Positions 5,433 to 34,205 of a stretch of 64,000 bases of DNA are shown in pieces (position 1 is the first letter of the stretch; each line of letters starts with the position of its first letter). A model generated the notes under the pieces. It worked only from the letters and a program-made list of their open reading frames with translations, ran no database searches and had not been told where the DNA came from. The translations under genes were made by a program, and so were the position numbers. The stretch is from Pseudovirgaria hyperparasitica (Eukaryota). The DNA lies in the NCBI GenBank assembly GCA_010093815.1, contig ML996576.1; one strand, 5' to 3'.

Positions 5433-5517
5433 NNNNNNNNNNNNNNNNNNNNNNNNNNNNNNNNNNNNNNNNNNNNNNNNNNNNNNNNNNNNNNNNNNNN
5501 NNNNNNNNNNNNNNNNN
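5433..5517. other. Assembly gap (85 N)
   Basis: Run of N characters. Confidence 1.
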
Positions 5518-5760
5518 TGGTGTGTATAGCAGGGAGTAGGTAGTAGGTTGTAGGGAGTAGGTAGTACACAGCAGGTAGCAGTCAGCACGCAGCAGTCAGC
5601 AGTCAACAAGCAAGCAAGAAGGAAAGCCATTTGTCAAACGAGAAACTTTCGTCCTGGTGCTCGGGTCTTTTTGTATATCTCGCGAGTCTTGTCTCTTTGC
5701 GGTGAATTGCGGCACTAAGAAACACCGTGGGCGGAGGAGGGTTGGTTTACTGCGTGCGTA

Positions 5761-6022: not shown

Positions 6023-6244
6023 CAGGAAATAGGATACATACCACACGAAACGAGACGAGACGGGACTGGCCTGGCATAGGCATGGGCATAGGCATGAGCA
6101 TGAGCACTGGCATAGCCTGGCATCCGTATCAAACACAAAACACAAACATCCACCCAATTCACCGACCAGGAGTTTCGGACTGGATTCAAGGACAGGCAGA
6201 CAGGCAGGCAGGCAGGTAGGCAGGTAGTTTCGATACCCCTAATC

Positions 6245-6730
6245 TGCACATATACATTCACAGACATACTCATACTATACTCATACACATACTCGCATAC
6301 TCATACTCATACTCATACTCGCATACACATACTCGCATACACATACTCGCATACACATACTCGCATACACATACTCGCATACACTTACATACTCACATAC
6401 ACGTACTCGCATACTCATACTCATACATACTCGCATACATACTCGCCTACCATACTCATGCTCGCCTACTCATGCACACATACTCATACTCATACTCACA
6501 TACTCATGCTCGCCTACACATACACATACACACTTACATACTTGCCTACCATACTCACATACTCATGCTCGCCTACACATACACATACACACTTACATAC
6601 TTGCCTACCATACTCACCTACTCATGCTCGCATACTCATACTCACATACTCACATACACATACTCATACTCATACTCACATACTCATACTCATACTCATA
6701 CATACCCGCCTACACATACTCGCCTACACC
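6245..6730. repeat. (CATACT)n-derived satellite with higher-order 14-bp (ACTCGCATACACAT) and about 58-bp duplications
   Basis: Visible tandem structure. It produces spurious THTH/YSYS ORFs. Confidence 0.9.
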
Positions 6731-6767
6731 CTCTCAAACTGTATCGAAAACTCTCATGCTACCATTC

Positions 6768-6808
6768 TATCCTACCCCATCCTACCCCATCCTACCCCAT
6801 CCTACCCT
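6768..6808. repeat. (CCTACCCCAT)n tandem repeat
   Basis: Three to four tandem copies. Confidence 0.9.
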
Positions 6809-7126
6809 ACTGCTTGCTATTCCAAGCCCAACCCGGAAGCTAAACACCAACTACCAACTATTCACCCATTCTATCCAGCATCTTATCGTTCTCGTTGATA
6901 CGTGTATTTAAAGAGAAGGTTAGGGGTAGGGGGGGGGTTTAGGTGTAGTATGTTCACATGTATGTATATTCCTCGCACTGTCATCATATAGGATGTGTGG
7001 ATGTGTGGATGTGTGGATGGATGGATGGACATACCACATGAACAGATCACACCGGTAGATTATAGAATGTAGAGATAGAATAATTACACATCATCGTCAG
7101 GTCAGTATTGCCCATCATGCATGCAC

Positions 7127-22047: not shown

Positions 22048-23843
22048 CTACCCCCGAAGCCCCGTAATCCTAATCTTCACCCCACGACTGTCCAGACTCG
22101 CATGTGCCAGAAACGGCTCGCGCGAGATCTTCACGTCTCGCTCATACGTCGTATCCACCAACTCGAACTCATACCGGCGGCAGAGCGTCGCAAGCACCAT
22201 CTGCATCTGGCCTTGTGCATAGCTAAAGGAGATTGCGTCAGCGAATGTGATAAGAGGAATGCAATGTGGGAACTGACTCCTTTCCGAGACAGGAGCGTCC
22301 GCCGCGGCCCCAGGGGATGTAGTGGCGGTCTTCAATGGCGAGGAGGTCGTTGTCGAACCAGCGCTCGGGTTTGAATAGAGTGGGTTCGGGAAAGACGGCG
22401 GGATCTAGCATGAGGTTGCGATGGTTGACGGATAGGGGTGTCTGTGAATGGTGAGTGAGAGTTTGATTTGTGTCTGGGGGACTTTTGTTGCTCTTACACC
22501 TGGCGGAATGATCCAGTTGCCGAATGTCATTGGCTCGCGGCAGAGTAGGGGCAGACGACCTCCAACGGGGAAGGCAACTCGTAATGCTTCTTTAACAACA
22601 TTGATCTGAGAAAAGTGAGCTCGCTAGCTATCTTATATAGACCTCGTGTAAAGGGCACTCACCAGATATGGAAGACTTTCCATGCTTTTCAAAGTAGGAA
22701 TCGTCATACGATCTGGATACGCAGCGTCCAGCTCCTCACGCAGCTTTGCCAGCGTCTCAGGACGATCCAGAAGATAGAACATGACGGCAGTGAGCACACG
22801 AACGGGTGTGGCGGCAGCTGCAAAGAGTTCAGTTCCCTCTTGTGTCAGACGTTCCAGCTCATCTTCGGTGTCGTGCAGTTTACGGCGCTGGAGTACTTCA
22901 AAGAGTGTCTCGGGACGGCCAACGATCGCAGGACGGATCGAGCCCTTGTATTCGCTCTTCTCCGTCTCGTCTAGATATCGCAGCGTTCGGGCTCTGATGC
23001 GCTTCAGACACGGGTCAGCATGAATGTGACATGAACGATTGTCAACAGGCACTACACATAACATACATGAGACACCTGCAGAATACGCGCCACTTTATGC
23101 GAGAGCTTCTTGACCATATTCATCGGGAGCAACAGGAACGGTTTGATCGACCAGGGAAAGGACTTGAGCCAAGGTGCGAATGTCGATATCGCGTCCGTCG
23201 TAAGATCCCACTGATTCGCAATGTCCAGATCTGTAAGCGAATTGAGCTGATCGTTGAAAGCCATATCGTACATCGAGTCGAACATCAACGCAGCAAACGG
23301 CACTCGCAGTTCCACCGGCTTGTCCTTCTGCGACCACAACAACGCACAGCATCTCTCGATATGTTTGTGCAGCACTGGCTCCGCAGCCGCAATATTCGCC
23401 AGTGAGAAGAAAGAACTAGCGGCGACTCTGCGTTTCCGATGGAGATGATGCTCAACAGTGCTAAAGGTGCCCTCGGTAGTCCCAAGAATCTGCGTTATAG
23501 GAGCCCATTTGTCCCGCACCGCCGGCTGTGGAGCGTAGAGTTTGATGTGGAAGTCTACATCGTCGACGGCGAGTTCTTCCGGTGTGATCCGTACGATGGG
23601 GCCGTACTGTTGGTGCAATGCCCTCACCTTGGCCGGGAACTGACCACCTGGGCCGTCGAAGAGGTCGTAGTAGGTCTCGTATAGCTTCGATGCAGCTGCG
23701 AGTTTCGGTCCGGGGAATTTGGCGAGTGGGTGCCACCAGATCCTGTATGCAACCAGCCCGCCTAGATAGCCGGCCAGAAGACCAACTAGAAGGCAAACCA
23801 GCACACCACGTGGGAAATCCGAAGCCCAAGTATAGAGAGCCAT
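22048..23843 (-). CDS. Cytochrome P450 monooxygenase, secondary-metabolism type (resembles trichodiene oxygenase-like P450s), 5 exons, about 520 aa
   Basis: N-terminal TM anchor plus HPLAKFPGPKLAA, LHQQYGPIVRITP, ExxR (KEALR), PERW and heme motif WGRGGRSCLG. All four introns keep frame. Confidence 0.93.
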
Positions 23844-24508
23844 GGGGAGATCAATGCTACAAGGTAGACGCTTGTGGCCTTGTTGGCGACTTGGTAGGTT
23901 GGGTCAAGTCTTATATATATACGTCTAGGACGGAATATAACAGCCCACACGGTGAATACGATAGATGAACATGATAGAGTTTTTAGTGTTGTCTGATCCC
24001 CCAGTGTTGGGCCTATTCACTTTCTTGTCAACAGGCGCAGACGCCACTAAAATTCAACGAAGCAAGGGCCAAGAAGGTATCGTGGGGTCGAAAGTATGTC
24101 TAGACTCTTTGGCCAGCTGCGAACGTATAGAAGCAGACAGATTGATCGGCGCTCTGCCCAATTCGAGAGCATCGCCGGGACCCTGTTGACCTCTTGAATT
24201 GTTCTGTCTAGGGTTGAGGTCGCACTGACTGTATGGGACCCGCTGTAGCGATCCTTAGTCCACTGGGTGTGCTTACGTGCTTCGCCCAGTATGGATGATA
24301 GTGATCGTACATCATATATACCCGGCCAGGCGGAGCTGAGACGTGCCTTGTGAACAAGCGGTGGAGTTCGCCGACTTTTATCACTTTGCTAGCGTTAAAT
24401 ACCCGGGCGTCACGGCATAGAAATGCGTCGTCTATGGTGTGGCCGTTTGTCAGATACTCGTCTTTCTTGCTCCGCTGTCACAAAAGTACTCTGTAGAAGA
24501 GTTATACC

Positions 24509-25732
24509 ATGCCGTCAATCAACTTGTCTCGCGAGCAGGTCCTAGAAGACTTGAGAGGTCAAACGATACACATCCCCAATCTTCTCCCCATTTTCGCTGA
24601 CTGGAGAGGGGCTTCGACAGTACACGTCAGCACTTTCGTTGACGAGTTGAGAGTAATAGTCACAGAAAGACTTAGAAGGTGAGACCCCAATGGACAATGC
24701 AAAAGCAGGTTTGTCTCTAACGGTTGCAGGCTCTATACCAATGGCAAACAACTGAAAACGCTTGAGAGTGCAGACTTTGCGTTATTCACTGCATTATGGT
24801 GGCCAGATGCTCCACTAAATAGATTGCGGACGCTCGCTTTCCTTATAATCTGGCTTTTCACGTGGGACGACGAGATTGATACGCCGACAGGTTTCTGCAG
24901 CGATGACTTTGGAGCAGCACAGAGATATCGCGAGAAGACTCTGGAGTTCGTAGCGGCAACGTTAGGCCTCTCAGCAAGCAAGATTACTCCCGCGCCACGC
25001 AATGCAATCATTCAGAGTTTCGATGTGGTAGGAGATGCACTCCGAACGTCGTACTCCTTGGACCAGCGTCGACGCTTCTATCGAGAAATTTTCCGGTTCA
25101 TGATTGCCTCAGAGGACGAGCAGAGACTGAGACTGGACGGGACTGTACCGACTTTGGAGCAATATTGGCAGTTCCGTTTAGGCACGAGCGCTGTCTATAT
25201 CGGAGTCGCAGTAGGAGAATTTTCTCTGCCAATTCAGCTGCCCCAATATATTCTGGAAAATCATCACATGCAGGGTATCTGGGACGAGACGAACGTGATT
25301 ATATCGATTATCAATGATCTACTTTCGCTTCGAAAAGAGATCAAACAAGGATGCATTGATAGCATCGTGCCATTGACGTTTGCTAGGTGTGGAGACCTGC
25401 AGATAGCGGTGTCGAAATCAGTTGCAGCCTTGCGCATGTCCAAGGATCGTTTTGACTTGGCAGCACAATCCTTGGTAATGGCTACGGCCAAGGAGGACGT
25501 GCGTGGAGTACGTGACTTTATCGATGTCTGTAAGAGCAACTCGATAGGAAACCTAGTCTGGAGGTCAGTCTCACTGCTATCACCACATTCTAATTCTTCT
25601 AGAGCTATCAAGTCAACTTCGGTATTCGAGAACAAAGACTGATCAAGCTGACACTTCTTTAGCCTTGAAACATCCAGATATAACGTCATGGACACGAAGA
25701 TAGGGAACGGAAGCCTGACGTATGTGTTGTGA
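24509..25732 (+). CDS. Class I terpene cyclase, probable sesquiterpene synthase (exons about 24509-24678, 24730-25563, 25663-25732)
   Basis: DDxxD (WDDEID), pyrophosphate-sensor Arg (QFRLGTSAV), NSE/DTE triad NDLLSLRKE and a spliced WxxxxxRY motif (WSLETSRY). Confidence 0.93.
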
Positions 25733-26485
25733 GCTATGGTGGATTGTTTTGGTAAGCATAGCCGGTCGTGGCTTTCTTTATCGGGAATTGGGCCACGAAT
25801 GAAAACGATTCTTTGGATGAGTGGGGCCCCAAGAAGATGAGTGGCGTTCAGGTATATCTATCATGGTGAACAGGCAGCTATTCGACTCCAGCTTTGTGGG
25901 CCTTGCCGGTTGTGACCATGAGCTCTGGTCGTAGTGTAGCTCACCACTCAGCAGGGTTGCATGAATCGCTGACTCGAAGGATTCGAAGCTCAAAACACTC
26001 CAGAGTCTAGCCATAGAGATGTGCGACTCCGATTCGCGAGCCTACAAGAGACGTTAATAGTACTTGAATTGCATAAGAGTTCTCATGATTATGCTGTCAC
26101 ACGTGTCCACGTTGTAGTATATGCATTTATGCGCCTCATGTTTAGCTGGTGTCAGAGACACGTTGAGCCCGATGAACATTTATGCTACTTCTCGATGATA
26201 GACAGCGCGAGCTACCGCACCATGTTAGTTGGTTGGCTTGGAGCGCTGGCAAAATTCAGATGACAATGGCAGTAGCTGTTTGCACCCTGCAAGAGGAGAT
26301 GGCGTAGGTATCATGTCTTGTTGCTTCAGCGCTGTATGGGGTCTAAATTTGCCACATCAAGACATCTCTCCAACACAGTTCGTGTCATCTAAGTGGCGAT
26401 TTCTTCCGCGTATTCGTGTATGATTAGGCTCGCTATCGCTCACGCAGTTACAGCAGTAGCTGCTTTATTCCTCGTACTGTTCGAC

Positions 26486-27392
26486 TTACGACTTAGATGT
26501 GAATTGGAGCGGTCTAGGCTTGCCCCAGAAATCACAGGGATTGAAGCGCCAGACACTGTTGCCAGCTGCAAACCAGTAGTGTACAATGTATGGCATGATG
26601 AAGGGCACTGGCGGAAATGGTGTTCCTCCTTCATAGGTCTTGTCTGCGGTGCCGAGAACCATCGGAAAGGTCGTGTACTGTTTCATGGAGGATTAGCATA
26701 TGTTTACTGTCAGAACTAGCTTCGGTACTTACTAGCATGTCGACGAAACCTTCAGATTGGGAGAACTTCTCGCCTATTTCCCAGCACTTCTTCAGTCCGG
26801 CACTTTCCAAGGTCTTCAGACTCAGGAAAATGTCGATTTCTGCGTACAAATGAGTGATGAGCGCATCACTGAAGTCGTTGATCAGCTCCTCCATCCCGCC
26901 TTGACCTGACCAGCGGTAATTCTCCGGTGATGACTCTTTGCAGTATTTCAACAGCTTCTCCAGGCCTGGTGTGAAGGTTTCATGCTGATGTTTCGGACTG
27001 TCCATGAGCCCTGGCTTGCCGGCAAACTTTTCAATTTCTGGAAAGATGCAAACCTCCTCAACGTGATGATGCTTCTCCATGCCCTCAATCCAGATCTGGA
27101 CGTATTTCATCAGGTCTTTTACATCCTGCTCATTGTAATTGGGGTCGGAAATGGTGGGTATGTGAGGAGCTTGCTGGATGATAGCATTGAGACCGCGTAT
27201 CATGAAGTTGTGGACTTGGGCCATCTGCGTGGCGCAATAGACAGCGGAGTGTTCCTTCTTGAAGAATTGTCAGTGGTAGCTTCAGGGGCCAATGAGAGCA
27301 CATACATTGGTAATGTCAGCACGTCCATCAGGAAGCGTGATGAGCTTGAAGGGTTCGTCCGCCCAGGGAGCAGCAGAGGGTTTGGTTGTCAT
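26486..27392 (-). CDS. Hemerythrin-like (HHE cation-binding) protein, 3 exons
   Basis: Spliced MTTKPSAAPWADEPFKLI...AQVHNFMIRGLNAI...EKHHHVEEVCIFP...QHETF...HLYAEI...WRFNPCDFWGKPRPLQF*. The H, HxxxE, H, HxxxE ligand pattern matches hemerythrin-like folds. Confidence 0.82.
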
Positions 27393-29050
27393 GATGGTCT
27401 TGGTGGTTGTAGATTCGTGGTTAGGTATTAAAAGTTTCAGGCTTGGAGGAAGAATTTGCATAGGTAGTAGAAGGAGATTAAGGAGCTGAGCTCTTGGCAG
27501 GTGGCACAATCATTTGCGATGGGCTTCGGGATGCTCGAGCTCCAAGAGTCAAGAGTCCTGCATGGCCAGCTTAGGTATGAGTAGAGAATCGGGGCATCGG
27601 CCGTCCGACGAATGGACGGAAGGAATTAATCAGCCGCATCGAAGGGAGACGTTGCTGATCACGACGGCAATGGCAACGTCAGACATCAGCCAGGTAAGGT
27701 ATTCAGACGGCGCGCGGGAACTGGTGGCCGTATCTGCGACGCGGTGTGTCGTGATAGTCCCTAACGTCTGTACTATGTAAGCGGACGATGGATCATGACC
27801 AATTGATTCTGGTTCGTCAAGGTGAGTTCCCTGGGATGACAAGTCAGAGACCCTTAGGACTACTAACCTTGATAGCCACGCACCACCCACAGGCACAAGT
27901 ACAGGCACAGGCAGAGTGTAAAGTGCTCTACTGACTTGGTGAACAAGCAGGGTGAAGTTCAGCAGGGCGGGGAGAAGTCAGCAGTTAGAGTGGGAGTGGG
28001 GTAATACGGTGCGTGCAGAATCTATGGATCTGATCCTTTTCATCCTTAGAACCCCCCCTTAAGCGCCAGCTGGTGCCACTTTTCCGGCGTCTTCAGCCCC
28101 GAGTTCGCGCTATTCTGTGCATGTTCTACCGCAAAAAGACACTAAATTCCGCCACCCGGTCTCCGCTGCACCCTTCTTCGGACACCCCTCCCCTCCTACT
28201 CCAATTCTCCTCTATTCTCCAGTTCTAGTCTTCTTTCATCCTTTTTCATTCATTCAAGCTTAGACCACCTCAATCAACACACACACGTTTTGCCATCTCG
28301 TCTTCCTCAATCCTCTTCACTTTGCATCCAAATTCGAACTGCAATATCATTCTATTAGGTCCCTTGTATCGCTCGTCTAGACTTGAAGCAAAACCGGCAT
28401 CCAGCGCATGATTCTGGATCCATGCTGTCAGCTCATCGGCAAGCTTATATCATCTCTGATAACCCCTACACCAGCCAAGGATGTTGATGTCTTGCTCCTA
28501 TGCCGCCATCACTATTCGCGTTACTATCCCGAAAAGACTTACGACTCCCACCACTCAGCACTTGCTACACAGCTACACAGAGAAGAGCTCGTGCATGCAC
28601 TGTCGCTTCCACCCACTTGACATGTATGCCATCTTTGCCATCTTCGCCATCTATGCAATCTGCTGGCTTGCACCCTCGCCTTGTCCGGACAGGCCGTGAT
28701 ACTTTGCCAGCTGCAAGCTACTTCATCCAGCGTAGCAGAAGTAGTGAGATCGCTTGCTGTTCTGCCATGGATCCATGTGCAGTGAGCCCATTTTACGTCC
28801 ATTCTCCTTTCTCTGCACTTCATCCTCCACCCTCTCACTCACTCTCCATCCACCTCGGCCAAGGGCAAGGGTCGGAGTGATTAAGGTAGTAATAGAGACA
28901 GACCCCTGTCAAAATCCTCATCCTCATCAGTACTTCTCCCGTGAGACCGCCAGCTATTGTCCATCATCTGTTCATCTCCCCTCTTGGTTGTCTGTGTGCG
29001 TTGTATATTGTCTGGCATCGCTGCCAATCGCTTCAACCAAATCAGCAATA

Positions 29051-30363
29051 ATGGTCGCTACTCTCACTCCCGACCAGTTGGCTACGATGAACGATAACAG
29101 GAACACTCTCATCGTCGCCGTTTCCGTCGTGCTCATAGTTCTCACCACCATCGCAATTGTTCTGAGGTTCATCGCGCGCCGCAGCCGATCTCTTCACATC
29201 GGTGTCGATGACTGGTTTGCGCTTGTAGCTTGGGTGCGTGAATTCTTGCAATTTCCTATATGAATGCAGAAGCAGCCAAGTTAACAGATTCAGGTTATTG
29301 CGATACCCATGTGCTCGCTGAACATCACAAGTGAGTCATGCTGGTTGCTACCGCACCATATAATATCATATGCGTGCACGCCATTGATGCGATAGACTGA
29401 CCTTGGTCTACAGTGATAAAATGGGGTTTGGGGCGCCACGTTTGGGGTGCTGATGTGCAAGTCCTTTGGAAGGTCGTTCAGGTCAGTCCCGAACACGAGC
29501 CTGTATCATCACATGAGATCTCACATTGACACAACTGACAGACCACTTGGGCGTTCACACTGCTCTACGCATGGGTTCATTTCTTCATCAAATTCTCCAT
29601 CCTCTTCTTCTACCACCGCGTCTTCAGCTTCAGAATTGCCTGGTTCAAATTGGCCTGCTACGCCTGTGGAGTGTACGCAGTCTCATGGACACTGGCTGCA
29701 TTCTTTGCTGCCGGCTTCCAGTGGTATGTGGCAATCTTCGTCATCTCAGATCAATCTCTGACTTGAAGACAGCTCACCAGTATCATTCTTGTGGACATCT
29801 GTACAACTCAATCCTCCAGCGAATGGAAAGTGCCACCTTCAGAATGGGCGAGCTGCTCTTGCCTTTGCTGCTCTGAACTCTCTGCTCGACATCCTCATCT
29901 TCATTCTGCCAATGGCTATGCTCTGGAACCTGCACATGAAAAGAGCACGAAAATTGTCCTTGATTGCCGTCTTTGCCACCGGCGCCTTGTAAGCTGCTCT
30001 CACACGCGTTGACGGACCTCCTACTAACATTTGCATAGCGCAATCACGGCTGGTCTCCTCCGATTGTCTAATAGCTACCTCAGTATCGATCCCAATGCTG
30101 ACGTGACATGGGTACTAGCCGACATCAACCTCTGGACAATCGCTGAAGCCTGCGTGGGAATCATTTGTGCATCTATGCCAGTCATAGGTCCACTTTTCGG
30201 ACTCGTAAAGGACAATGTTCGATCCTACCTCTCCAAACAGAGTCTGGAGAGTGGGACTCATGGGATCCCACTCTCTGGCAGGTCGGGTGAGTCTGGATCA
30301 ACAACACGGCTGGCTTCCTCACGAGGGTCGCACAACGATAGCATATATGCATTGAAGCCGTAG
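29051..30363 (+). CDS. PTH11-like (fungal rhodopsin-domain) 7-TM integral membrane protein, without CFEM domain (6 exons)
   Basis: LRFIARR...GVDDW, GLGRHVW, IKFSILFFYHRVF, QCSP, LDILIFILPM, LWNLHM and WTIAEACVGIICASMP are characteristic family motifs. Confidence 0.88.
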
Positions 30364-31221
30364 TAGTAGCATTTTTCACGATTGTATATGACTGCAGATA
30401 TCATGACGACGGTTATTGTACATGATTCGGAACCAATTAGGTATATGGAGGTCTGTTGTACTGGGGCTGTCTTTCTAGGAGCGTGCATTTGGAGATACCA
30501 TTTAAGAGTTTTGGCCATTCGATAAGATTTTACTTTGATCCTGCTGCCTATACCATGACATATTTTCGTGAAAGATGATAGGGGCTGATTGAATTCGAAT
30601 GGCATCATCGCACGGCGAAGATCCCTTCGTCTGAATGGATGGTATTTATCCACGTCTGAGATTGACCCTGACTCGTATCCAATCGAGGGCTGAGACTGAA
30701 CCAGGTAGGTGTTCATCGAGCATCTCAGTCAGCATCTAAGAACAGCAATCTACCAATTCCATGAGCATGTCCCACAGTCGTCACCGCCATGATGACGATG
30801 TTGAGTCAGATCGATATTGGGGTGGGCAAGGTAGATACAGAACACAGCAATGCTGAATCCGACCCAGTCCGGAGTGTTTGATCCCATCCATATCGACCAA
30901 GCCGATCATAGGCTCTCGTTCTATGCTAGTGCTCAGCCATCTCAGCCTCAGGTCTCGTCACATGCAGCCTCTGTACGCTGCAGCCTATCCGATGTGAGGA
31001 TGGGAATCCGGATCCACGTCCGCTTCCATTGCCTAGTCATCACCTTCTAGCCACGCATCGCCGCGAACTGTATTCCTTACATCCTGCCTGCATCAGGCCC
31101 ATCATTCACTATTTCTTGTTTCCACTATTCACACAAACTCAAGGCTCACGATGTACAACAACGGCTTGTTGAGGAAGGCATATTTTCGAACACGGCATTT
31201 CGTTGCCACTTGCAAACCACC

Positions 31222-32599
31222 ATGAACACTGATCCCGCAGTCGATGAGTTCATCGCCAGAATTGAAAATTTCCCAAAGCCTCAAAATCCTGGTCAACGGA
31301 GACGTCTGTGGGAGGCAGCAAGAGCTTTACAGACAAGAATTGAAGACGAAAATACCACTCAACACCGGATCCTAGGTTCAGTGAGTGCTACCGTTCGTAT
31401 TGATTTGGAAGTAAATGGCTTAACAGTACGACATGCAGCCTCTCCTCCTGATTGTGTCTCGGCTTGCTTCTGATCTCGGGATATTCAACGCCCTCATCGA
31501 TAATGTCACCCCCTCCTCTGTTCCAGATCTTGCTGTGAGGTGCAAGGTAGATGAGCGACTGCTAGGTAGGCTTTTTCTCTCTGTCCGGACTCAACTCTAC
31601 CTAAAATACAATGCGTGGAAATACCTCTCCATCAACAACAATACTACGTCTCGAAGCGTAACCAGGCAGATCTAACGTCACACAGCTCGTATCCTGCGAT
31701 ACCTCTCGTCACAGCACCTAGTAACCGAGTCCTCCCCCTCACACTTCACTACCTCCGTCCTCACCAGAACCCTCGCCAAACCAGCCTACGCAGCCGGTCT
31801 TCGGTTCGCCCATGAATGCATTCTCCCTGCAACATCCGCCGCCCCAGCATTCTTCGAGTCCACACACTATGCCCATCCAACCTCACCCACCAACACCCCC
31901 TTTCAGCTGGGCCAGGGCGTGTCCGACCACATGTTCACCTGGCTGAAGCAGCGCCCAGCCCTAGAAGCAGACTTCAACGCCATGATGGCCGAAACCCACC
32001 GCTGGCAACGCAGCGTCTGGGAACAACTCCCCCTCCCCGCCGTGCTCGCCGACCGGGCCGCCGCCTTTCCAGACCGCACCACCGTCGAAACCACGCCCTC
32101 CCGCCCCCTCTTCGTCGACATCGGCGGCGGCACAGGCCGCACCTGCAAGGAACTCAAAGAAGCCTTCCCCCACCTCCCCGGCCGCATCATCAACCAAGAC
32201 CGCGCCCCGGCCCTCGCCGCCGGCCTCACCGTCGACGGCCTAGAACACATGGAACACGACTTCTTCACCCCGCAACCCATCACCGGCGCCCGCGTCTACT
32301 ACCTCCGCCGCGTCCTGCACAACTGGCCTCGCGCCAAATGCGTCGAGATCCTCACGCACTGCGTCGCGGCTATGGCGGCCGACTCGCTGCTCATGATTGA
32401 CGAGATTGTGCTGCCGGAGCGGGGCGCGCATTGGCATTTGGCGTATGCGGATTTCACGATGATGGCGCTGTTTGGGGGTGGGTGTCGCTCGCGTGCGGAG
32501 TTTGAGGGGATTTGTAAGGAGGTGGGTCTCAGGGTTGTGCGGGAGTTTGTGTATATGGTGGAGTCGGGGGAGACGGCGTTGGTGGCGGAGAAGGTGTGA
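31222..32599 (+). CDS. SAM-dependent O-methyltransferase (methyltransf_2 type), 3 exons
   Basis: Winged-helix dimerisation N-terminus, FVDIGGGTG SAM motif, IINQD, EHDFFTPQPI and YYLRRVLHNWP with the catalytic His. The spliced frame is continuous. Confidence 0.92.
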
Positions 32600-33534
32600 G
32601 TCTGGCTACGGCTTGAGGTGTGTACTGGTCTTGAGGAGTAATCAACTGCCGGCTACGTAGAGCATACAGACATACATACACATACTGAAGACTCTTCCCG
32701 CCCCTATACCAGCCATATACGTGAACATCCCCCAGCATGTATCCCGAAATCGAGTATACCAATGCTTTACACAAAGCTCCTCGAAAATAGTCCTCAACAA
32801 CCCAGAAGTCCCTCCTTAATCTGCGTATCAAGATCTCCCCTATAATCTCTCTCTCTCTTTCTACATCACCCCAGCGCCAACCCCTTCCCCCGTCCCGTGC
32901 CTCACTCCCTCCCTCCCGGACCCGTCTTACCTCGTTCGCTTGCCCCCTTACCAGACACAACACACAACAGAAACCAAACCCAATCAAACCAAACTAAATC
33001 GAAATAAACCAAAACAACTAAAAACTCAGAGAACCACTAAAACCCTTAAAAAAAACTCCATAAAAAACTCCTTCGCTCCATTTCGTCACAGCTCCACGAA
33101 CCCTGAGCATAGTACGATACGGCACAGCACGACATAGCACATCCTACCACATCCCACCCAATCACAGCACACCCAATCCTACAAAAACTATATATCCTGC
33201 AACACCGAATCACAATAACAACAATATTCCGCCTCCCAACGGAGAGATTTCTATCTCTACCGATTTACAGGGGTATGGGTTGGGGTGTATGAGGTATAAG
33301 GGGCTCAGGGGTGTGTACGAGGGGATATAAAGGGAGGCAGGGAGGCGTCTGAGATTTCTATTCCTATCTGCACGTATAGCTAGCTCTATCTGTATGTCTA
33401 TATCGGTTTATATCGGTTATCGGTTATCGACTTGCATGCAGTGATAAGGGGTTTGAAGAGTTGGAGGGTAAGAGGGATAATCAGAGGCAAGGGGGATGTG
33501 ATCAAGGGTTCGGATCTGGTGCAGTCTGGTTGGG

Positions 33535-33650
33535 TATGGATCTGGATCATGTACAGGTTCTGGGTCTTGTACAGGTCCAGATCATGTACAGGCTCTGGGT
33601 CTTTGTACAGGTCTGGGTTTTGGTTCTGGTCATGTACGGATCTTGCGTAC
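33535..33650. repeat. Degenerate tandem duplication (about 35 bp, GATCATGTACAGG..TGGGTCTT..GTACAGGTC) within a GT-rich low-complexity tract
   Basis: Two near-identical units at about 33545-33615 plus partial copies. Confidence 0.75.
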
Positions 33651-34205
33651 GTCTTGCACGGGTTTGGGGTTTGTTGGGTTTGACAGGGGAGGCCTTGGAT
33701 TTCGCCGCTGGTAAGGAGGTAAAGTAGGGGAATCAAGTAGGCTGTGAGTTGGGCAAAGAAGTGGCATGCATGAACGTGCTGGCTGGGAAACGAAGCATTG
33801 GTGTTTGTTTGTTCGTATATGTGTGTATGTGTGTGTGTGTGTGTCTTGCATGGATTGCTTGCCTAGAGGGGCAGGCAGGCAGGCAGGCGGGCAGGGAGTG
33901 TGTGATTGATCTAGATCGGCGATCGATGGCCGTAGCCGAGCCTTGGAGCCAGGTATGGGGTGGGATAGGGGGTGCTGCTTACGTCGCCGTGGCCGTGGGA
34001 TTGCAAGGACATGGACCAGGGTTTGGGTATATGTTTTCGATTGGAATGAACCCCTCGTAGTGTGGCTTGTTCTATCCATTAGGCTAAAAGTCTGCACTGC
34101 TATCCATTGTCGGGGGACGCCGACAAGCGAGGACCACTTCGCCGGACATACATCCTCCGTATGTAGGTTCGTGGTACCACACACTCTGCAACCCAGTTCG
34201 TATAT

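Follow-up and report, generated by a model that had tools for sequence, protein, structure and literature searches.

The stretch of DNA analysed here, 64,000 nucleotides of contig ML996576.1 from Pseudovirgaria hyperparasitica (assembly GCA_010093815.1; hereafter "the window"), contains at 22048-32599 a real, conserved and uncharacterised terpenoid gene cluster, referred to below as the island. Its five genes encode a cytochrome P450 (P450), a class I terpene cyclase, a hemerythrin-like (HHE) protein, a rhodopsin-domain, PTH11-like membrane protein and an O-methyltransferase (OMT). We place at roughly 60% the probability that these genes form one pathway unit, i.e., an uncharacterised, transcribed terpenoid cluster with the HHE gene as a member. 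Pairs of cyclase and P450 genes are routine; what is new is a conserved, undescribed gene set found both in a hyperparasite of rusts and in many Sordariomycetes that live on wood and plants. Two oddities add to its value: the linked P450s form a lineage in which the usual proton-relay acid is missing, and the hemerythrin-like protein recurs beside terpene cyclases.

Linkage of the island genes in other fungi

Adjacency in named genomes was judged by proxy, from accession order, locus tags and contig size. Close relatives of the window cyclase (46-60% identical) were found in 23 named Sordariomycete records (P0002-P0044), and in eight of these 23 genomes an orthologue of the P450 and/or the HHE protein was located within 1-3 gene numbers of the cyclase (Table 1); the HHE orthologue stood 1-3 numbers away in five of them and the P450 was adjacent in four. 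A scan of metagenomes provided 19 further loci. One contig, L008, carries receptor-like, HHE, DUF924, P450, cyclase and short-chain reductase (SDR) genes and keeps both head-to-head pairs of the window, i.e., P450 with cyclase and HHE with receptor-like gene; the introns of the HHE gene and the second cyclase intron lie at corresponding places in both, as judged by eye. The L008 P450 found the window P450 as its best match in the P. hyperparasitica genome (208 vs 61 bits), and the last receptor exon of L008 found the window receptor gene (70 vs 37 bits). The records P0012/P0277 apparently come from the same organism as L008 and were not double-counted. The P450-cyclase pair was repeated in locus L007. 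In loci L017-L020 (98-100% identical, from one source) a more distant cyclase (35%) is tail-to-tail with an HHE gene, with no P450 within 10 kb, and in L012, L013 and L015 a 43-45% identical cyclase is paired with another P450. The initial annotation had considered that the HHE, PTH11-like and OMT genes might be unlinked to the others elsewhere; instead, for each of the three a reciprocal-best or top-scoring relative lies beside a further member of the cluster in one or more other fungi.

Several features of these loci were recorded in passing. The DUF924 gene of L008 (6006-6719, minus strand) lies between the HHE and P450 genes; in Xylaria longipes DUF924 is fused to the P450 (model P0125), probably a merged gene call, and the window island has none, the matches in the P. 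hyperparasitica genome being on contigs C10 and C7. In L017 (2-12285) the distant cyclase and HHE genes lie downstream of dehydroquinate-synthase-like, COMT-type methyltransferase, GFO oxidoreductase and AMP-binding enzyme genes, a set that we take to be a mycosporine-like start. Loci of the L013/L012/L015 type also contain GMC oxidoreductases, a rhodopsin-domain gene and a second P450.

Gene models and transcription

All five frames were open after splicing, with 0 internal stops, and transcript contigs fitted the intron models, so that the intact frames reported by the initial annotation stand. In the listed joints of contigs from two runs of one sample (nine further joints are not shown), 14 of the 15 modelled introns were skipped; the 15th, the second OMT intron, can be deduced from a contig piece starting at 31684. 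Because the contigs skip introns, all five genes are transcribed and spliced in that one sample; contig depth cannot rank the expression of the five genes. An additional intron upstream of the HHE frame (Table 1) possibly sits in the HHE leader, and the leader spliced in this way would contain eight ATGs.

The gaps across the island and its flanks measure 904, 665, 753, 1658, 858 and 1606 bp. One flank is a sugar-transporter-like gene of the major facilitator superfamily (PF13347) and the other has a class II tRNA synthetase core (PF00587). Both families named for the flanks by the initial annotation were matched; its identification of the synthetase as SES1 goes further, the seryl type being a putative reading of the sequence. 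The possibility that the synthetase is a resistance copy was rejected, since the genome has a single close copy and the other is only 33% identical. Low-complexity tracts of short repeats occur in intergenic DNA at 6100-6900 and 33500-33910 of the window, and a run of N near 5440-5520.

Table 1. Features of the island in the window, and linked orthologues in named Sordariomycete genomes
Feature	Position or accession	Strand	Details
Cytochrome P450, 520 aa, 4 introns	22048-23843	-	PF00067; exons 23067-23843, 22663-23001, 22498-22605, 22278-22441, 22048-22222
Divergent P450-cyclase intergenic region, 665 bp	23844-24508		L007 and L008 likewise have the two genes head-to-head
Class I terpene cyclase, 357 aa, 2 introns	24509-25732	+	PF19086; exons 24509-24678, 24730-25563, 25663-25732
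Hemerythrin-like (HHE) protein, 267 aa, 2 introns	26486-27392	-	PF01814; exons 27306-27392, 26733-27257, 26486-26677
Extra GT-AG intron, 100 nt, upstream of HHE	27768-27867	-	Present in 1 of 2 runs
Rhodopsin-domain (PTH11-like) membrane protein, 336 aa, 5 introns	29051-30363	+	PF20684; head-to-head with HHE, as in L008
Methyltransf_2 O-methyltransferase, 399 aa, 2 introns	31222-32599	+	PF00891
Cladobotryum cyclase/P450/HHE	KAK5988014/013/011		
Xylariaceae FL0016 cyclase/HHE	KAI1337117/119		
Xylaria palmicola cyclase/HHE	KAI0400193/191		
Monosporascus CRB-8-3 cyclase/HHE	DL769_000926/928		
Cytospora chrysosperma cyclase/HHE	VSDG_06727/06726		
Microdochium cyclase/P450	KAH7031685/686		
Astrocystis cyclase/P450	KAI0190865/866		
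X. longipes cyclase/P450	g8203/g8202		

The cyclase and its P450

The window cyclase has the complete set of class I features (DDxxD, NSE/DTE triad, sensor Arg and WxxxxxRY; PF19086 at 94.6 bits): DDEID at residues 103-107, pyrophosphate-sensor R206, the NSE motif at 252-260 and the C-terminal WxxxxxRY. The three motifs listed by the initial annotation, DDEID, NDLLSLRKE and WSLETSRY, are thus all present, and its P450 and cyclase are divergent as it described. The WSLETSRY ending is obtained because a 99-nt intron, 25564-25662, is spliced out; this intron is supported by transcript contigs and by alignment of homologues, and the ending that the initial annotation gave is correct. In the public 360-aa model, P0001, the stretch 25564-25662 is read as coding, so that the C-terminal RY motif is missing, and several homologue models end as P0001 does. 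The enzyme is probably a sesquiterpene synthase, with farnesyl diphosphate as its predicted substrate. Named matches in the PDB and NCBIfam were sesquiterpene synthases or generic terpene cyclases, all under the curated cut-offs; the nearest solved cyclases were 8h6q (E 8e-20) and 7w5f (E 3e-18). Going by producer genera, the product could, speculatively, be a caryophyllene (punctaporonin-type) or a cadinane phenol.

In the P450 the heme ligand Cys459 and the ExxR residues E378 and R381 are invariant in 14 aligned rows, and the protein has a P450 fold. Its four best non-self matches are all neighbours of cyclases. The I-helix departs from the canonical pattern for O2 activation, in which an acid-alcohol pair (AGxD/ET) is found: the window sequence AAAA-TP is one residue shorter, has no acid before the Thr and has a Pro after it, and four linked orthologues, L007 and L008 have MASF-TP. 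The shortened, acid-less helix was present in 7/7 cyclase-linked P450s (P0121-P0125, L007 and L008) and in 0/115 other matches; the canonical pair was kept in 100 of 120 P450 matches, and the acid was lost without the deletion in 15 others. As the seven acid-less proteins are kin, they count as one event and not seven. Read against the general P450 mechanism, the conserved loss of the proton-relay acid suggests that protons may be delivered with the help of the substrate, or that peroxide may be used. A complex prediction for P450 and HHE protein scored 0.00; it was run without alignments and counts neither way. The P450 beside the 43-45% identical cyclase (L013:6570-8368, L012, L015) has another odd I-helix, GGGDPA, with the acid kept and the Thr changed to Pro.

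The HHE protein

The HHE protein matched PF01814 at 43.4 bits. H45, H93, E97, H121, H165 and E169 are candidate di-metal ligands; H93 was conserved at 90% or more and the other five were invariant in 30 HHE rows, and these residues align with the ligands of YtfE (profile match E 0.02). The protein has a candidate di-metal site, with iron binding and reactivity towards O2, peroxide or NO predicted from the ligands. The structural model (pLDDT 76.6) gave Z scores of 10.0-10.6 to the folds of NMB1532, the Rv2633c homologue and FBXL5; these matches (6q09, 3v5x, Z 10) fall under the tool's bar of ~13 for helical bundles, and Foldseek found nothing at E<=0.001. The C-terminal extension of ~65 residues, which is conserved and hydrophobic, matched no named family.

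The genome has three PF01814 matches, two of the long type (as in the island) and one of the short type. Both long-type genes are located within ~10 kb of a terpene cyclase, the second (41% identical, on contig C5) having a bifunctional copalyl-type diterpene synthase at a distance of ~10 kb. By position alone a second HHE gene would fall near a cyclase with a probability of ~0.5% (~8 cyclase loci in 35.4 Mb), a figure to be read with the tendency of secondary-metabolism genes to cluster anyway. The long type thus recurs beside three kinds of cyclase: the close clade, the distant class I enzyme without a P450, and the bifunctional diterpene synthase. No terpene gene was seen near the short-type copy, and no HHE gene within ~10 kb of the class I cyclase loci on C4 and C2.

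The C5 diterpene cluster (G000:C5:1257139-1272882, i.e., L028:2139 to L029:7882) includes, with the synthase (E 5e-67 to 8v0f), a transporter-like frame, three P450s, a rhodopsin-domain gene, the long-type HHE gene and a GMC oxidoreductase (L030:2462-3604); its accessory pair, HHE plus receptor-like, is that of the island. A second copalyl-type diterpene synthase, 44% identical to the C5 gene, lies on the contig of the window (G000:C12:1032932-1033669), and the C4 class I locus (G000:C4:619427-634000; L033, L034) is near P450, FAD-binding monooxygenase-like and acetoacetate-decarboxylase-like genes.

The receptor-like protein and the O-methyltransferase

The membrane protein belongs to PF20684 and has a single Cys in its first 100 residues. 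PTH11 proper has an N-terminal cysteine-rich CFEM domain; lacking it, the window protein is PTH11-like and not PTH11 proper. It is most likely an accessory of the pathway, and a sensor role is only putative.

The OMT has the S-adenosylmethionine motif VDIGGGTG and RRVLHNW with the catalytic His, as in Methyltransf_2 enzymes. LepI (E 2e-57) and MpaG' were the nearest structures. A LepI-type pericyclase was considered and rejected: the alignment puts Phe and His at the places of the LepI dyad (His133/Arg295), and the methyltransferase His is kept. The closest match among 1.84 billion representatives was Daesc_000184 of Daldinia eschscholtzii (43%, 240 bits; next 193), which in turn found the window OMT as its best match in the genome (240 vs 127 bits); 10 of the 150 listed matches were named. 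The locus tag Daesc_000184 differs by two from that of the HHE orthologue, Daesc_000186, which shares its contig; the gene between them may, at a guess, be receptor-like, which would repeat the window order. With no Daldinia cyclase among 120 listed matches, this link ties the OMT to the HHE gene but leaves the cyclase out. At the 90% level, the cluster of the Daldinia HHE protein also includes a fragment, P0457, whose record names Phytophthora cactorum; its contig is 1.5 kb long, and it is probably a contamination.

Origin of the island

Pseudovirgaria hyperparasitica is a Dothideomycete that grows on rusts as a hyperparasite, and the closest relatives of its cyclase, P450, HHE protein and OMT are mostly from Sordariomycetes. 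The cyclase, P450 and HHE exons of the island each matched P. hyperparasitica records with 100% identity. In a quick tree of 53 of the 120 listed cyclase matches, the window cyclase fell outside a clade of 25 rows, made up of Sordariomycete and further records, as its sister (support 97); the HHE protein likewise branched as sister to the clade of its relatives. GC content at third codon positions was 0.53-0.70 for the island genes vs 0.49-0.61 for the neighbours (the NAP1 row, which was out of frame, was ignored). Neither these sister placements of cyclase and HHE protein nor the neighbour-like base composition gave a sign of recent horizontal transfer; ancient transfer and patchy loss are both possible.

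Proposed pathway and alternatives

The two conserved divergent pairs, P450 with cyclase and HHE with receptor-like gene, would together with the OMT make up one cluster. The cyclase, by its motifs, would convert farnesyl diphosphate to a sesquiterpene, which the P450 paired with it would then oxidise. Given its linkage and ligands, the HHE protein would most likely add a second, di-iron oxidation step or act as a helper that handles oxygen or peroxide. In this lineage, the OMT might methylate a hydroxyl group, phenolic or enolic, on the oxidised product, which is the weakest link of the scheme, and the receptor-like membrane protein would be an accessory. More tentatively, with the odds running against it, the long-type fungal HHE proteins could be an unrecognised class of di-iron terpenoid-tailoring enzymes: the HHE protein would form a (hydro)peroxide or otherwise oxidised terpene, the acid-less P450 would continue in a non-standard way, and the phenolic or enolic product would then be O-methylated. 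If the HHE protein is catalytic, fungal natural-product chemistry would gain an extra class of oxidase, and genome mining a new marker. A role of the island in the attack on rust fungi is possible and speculative.

A number of observations weigh against a single pathway unit. The initial annotation read the five genes as one set; partial sets are indeed linked elsewhere, and the complete five were seen together at no second locus. No other fungus was found to have the OMT next to a close cyclase, and the OMT was present in 0/19 metagenome loci, many of which were short (a positive control was run). In three of the 23 close-cyclase genomes the relatives of the HHE gene were all on other contigs, and 12 of the 23 had no linked partner in lists that were incomplete (word-seeded, drawn from cluster representatives, with P450s of at least 455 residues only), so that blanks are weak; an eight-row Poronia/Xylaria/Stachybotrys branch of cyclases had no linked partner either. 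HHE orthologues also occur in Daldinia, Hypoxylon, Whalleya, Cephalotrichum and Aspergillus section Flavi without a close cyclase among the matches listed. The receptor-like family is large in the genome (106 exon matches), and there is neither a transcription factor nor an exporter gene within the island. Promoter words common to seven intergenic regions were not above shuffles: 2, 2 and 0 words at k=8, 9 and 10, compared with shuffled means of 0.6, 1.3 and 0.2 and maxima of 2, 6 and 1.

These points can be accommodated in other ways. The cyclase and P450 may make the compound alone, with the HHE and receptor-like proteins forming a stress or self-protection module (buffering or sensing of oxygen, peroxide or nitric oxide) that takes no catalytic step on the terpene. 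We consider this rather unlikely, though it deserves attention: the nearest HHE folds (NMB1532, the Rv2633c homologue, FBXL5 and YtfE) are non-biosynthetic; dmxR11 in a xanthone cluster, in what was accessible of its description, indicates that hemerythrin-like genes are not confined to terpene clusters; and in Fusarium verticillioides the HHE gene FVEG_09220 and the PTH11-related FVEG_10905, counterparts of the window genes by type, were both induced by three xenobiotics in the accessible part of the study (PMC10512309). The HHE gene beside a distant cyclase without a P450 in L017-L020 fits a direct tie to the terpene instead, and the conserved hydrophobic C-terminal extension would have no obvious use in a pure gas buffer. 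The island might also be two separate modules, a cyclase-P450 terpenoid pair and an HHE-receptor-OMT group from another pathway with its core elsewhere, possibly as in Daldinia. The OMT is linked elsewhere only to the HHE gene (Daesc_000184/186), in a genus without a close cyclase among the matches listed, its nearest structures are LepI and MpaG', and Methyltransf_2 enzymes usually act on phenols. Such a division is nevertheless improbable, the HHE gene being within 1-3 genes of a close cyclase in five named genomes and in L008, and cyclase and HHE genes being on contigs of equal size in two further cases (11,082 and 9,665 bases). It is very improbable that accessory genes merely came together here by chance, at a variable site; the P450, OMT and receptor families are large (31, 22 and 106 matches in the genome), but the reciprocal best matches, orientation and intron positions common to the window and L008 extend across two fungal classes, and L008 together with the accession series largely refutes this reading. 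One pathway unit that includes the HHE gene is the reading we prefer.

Comparison with known systems

The gene combination, which the initial annotation could assign to no characterised terpene cluster, was matched by none in open-access papers. No paper in that literature was found to report a hemerythrin-like gene as part of a terpene cluster in fungi, many fungal terpene pathways being published in subscription journals. The following comparisons are with the accessible parts of the papers cited.

The heptelidic acid (hep) cluster of Aspergillus oryzae and Trichoderma virens resembles the island in its class I sesquiterpene cyclase and P450 (PMC8162069), and the Cladobotryum orthologues of the two window enzymes were labelled "hepA" and "hepH" by their depositor. 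The hep cyclase product was oxidised by no P450, unidentified enzymes being proposed (PMC8162069). The hep cluster differs in having four P450s, HepB, regulators and the resistance gene HepG for glyceraldehyde-3-phosphate dehydrogenase (GAPDH), and the main text of the paper mentions neither "hemerythrin" nor "methyltransferase" (0 occurrences each; PMC8162069). Compared by gene content, identity with the hep cluster was rejected: between its flanks the island has a single P450 and nothing like a GAPDH frame. No T. virens or A. oryzae cyclase was among the 120 listed cyclase matches.

The brasilane (bra) cluster of Hypoxylaceae is likewise a compact set of cyclase, P450 and one tailoring gene, which there is a glycosyltransferase; "hemerythrin" occurs 0 times in the accessible text and supplements of that survey (PMC8403587). 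The solved trichobrasilenol synthase and BcBOT2 (8h6q, 7w5f) are the nearest structures, yet distant cyclases. The cryptosporioptide (dmx) cluster is another set of fungal biosynthetic genes in which a hemerythrin-like one, dmxR11, occurs (PMC9890505, PMC6428139); it specifies a polyketide xanthone pathway, dmxR11 is named there only as a unique gene, and the likeness is by description. YtfE/RIC, the Rv2633c homologue 6q09 and the FBXL5 domain share the four-helix bundle and the ligand pattern H...HxxxE...H...HxxxE with the window HHE protein, which is 12-17% identical to them and has a fungal-specific C-terminal extension. None of the three is known to be a terpene-tailoring enzyme.

For the receptor-like gene, none was found in the accessible part of PMC11745945. 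The Pb_bis cluster of Penicillium brasilianum is a small sesquiterpene cluster with a cyclase, a P450 and BisC, which is like a G-protein-coupled receptor; it differs in its UbiA-type cyclase and decarboxylase, and no hemerythrin or OMT is named in the part accessible (PMC11393291). BisC, whose own role is only putative, is a precedent for a receptor-like member in a sesquiterpene cluster.

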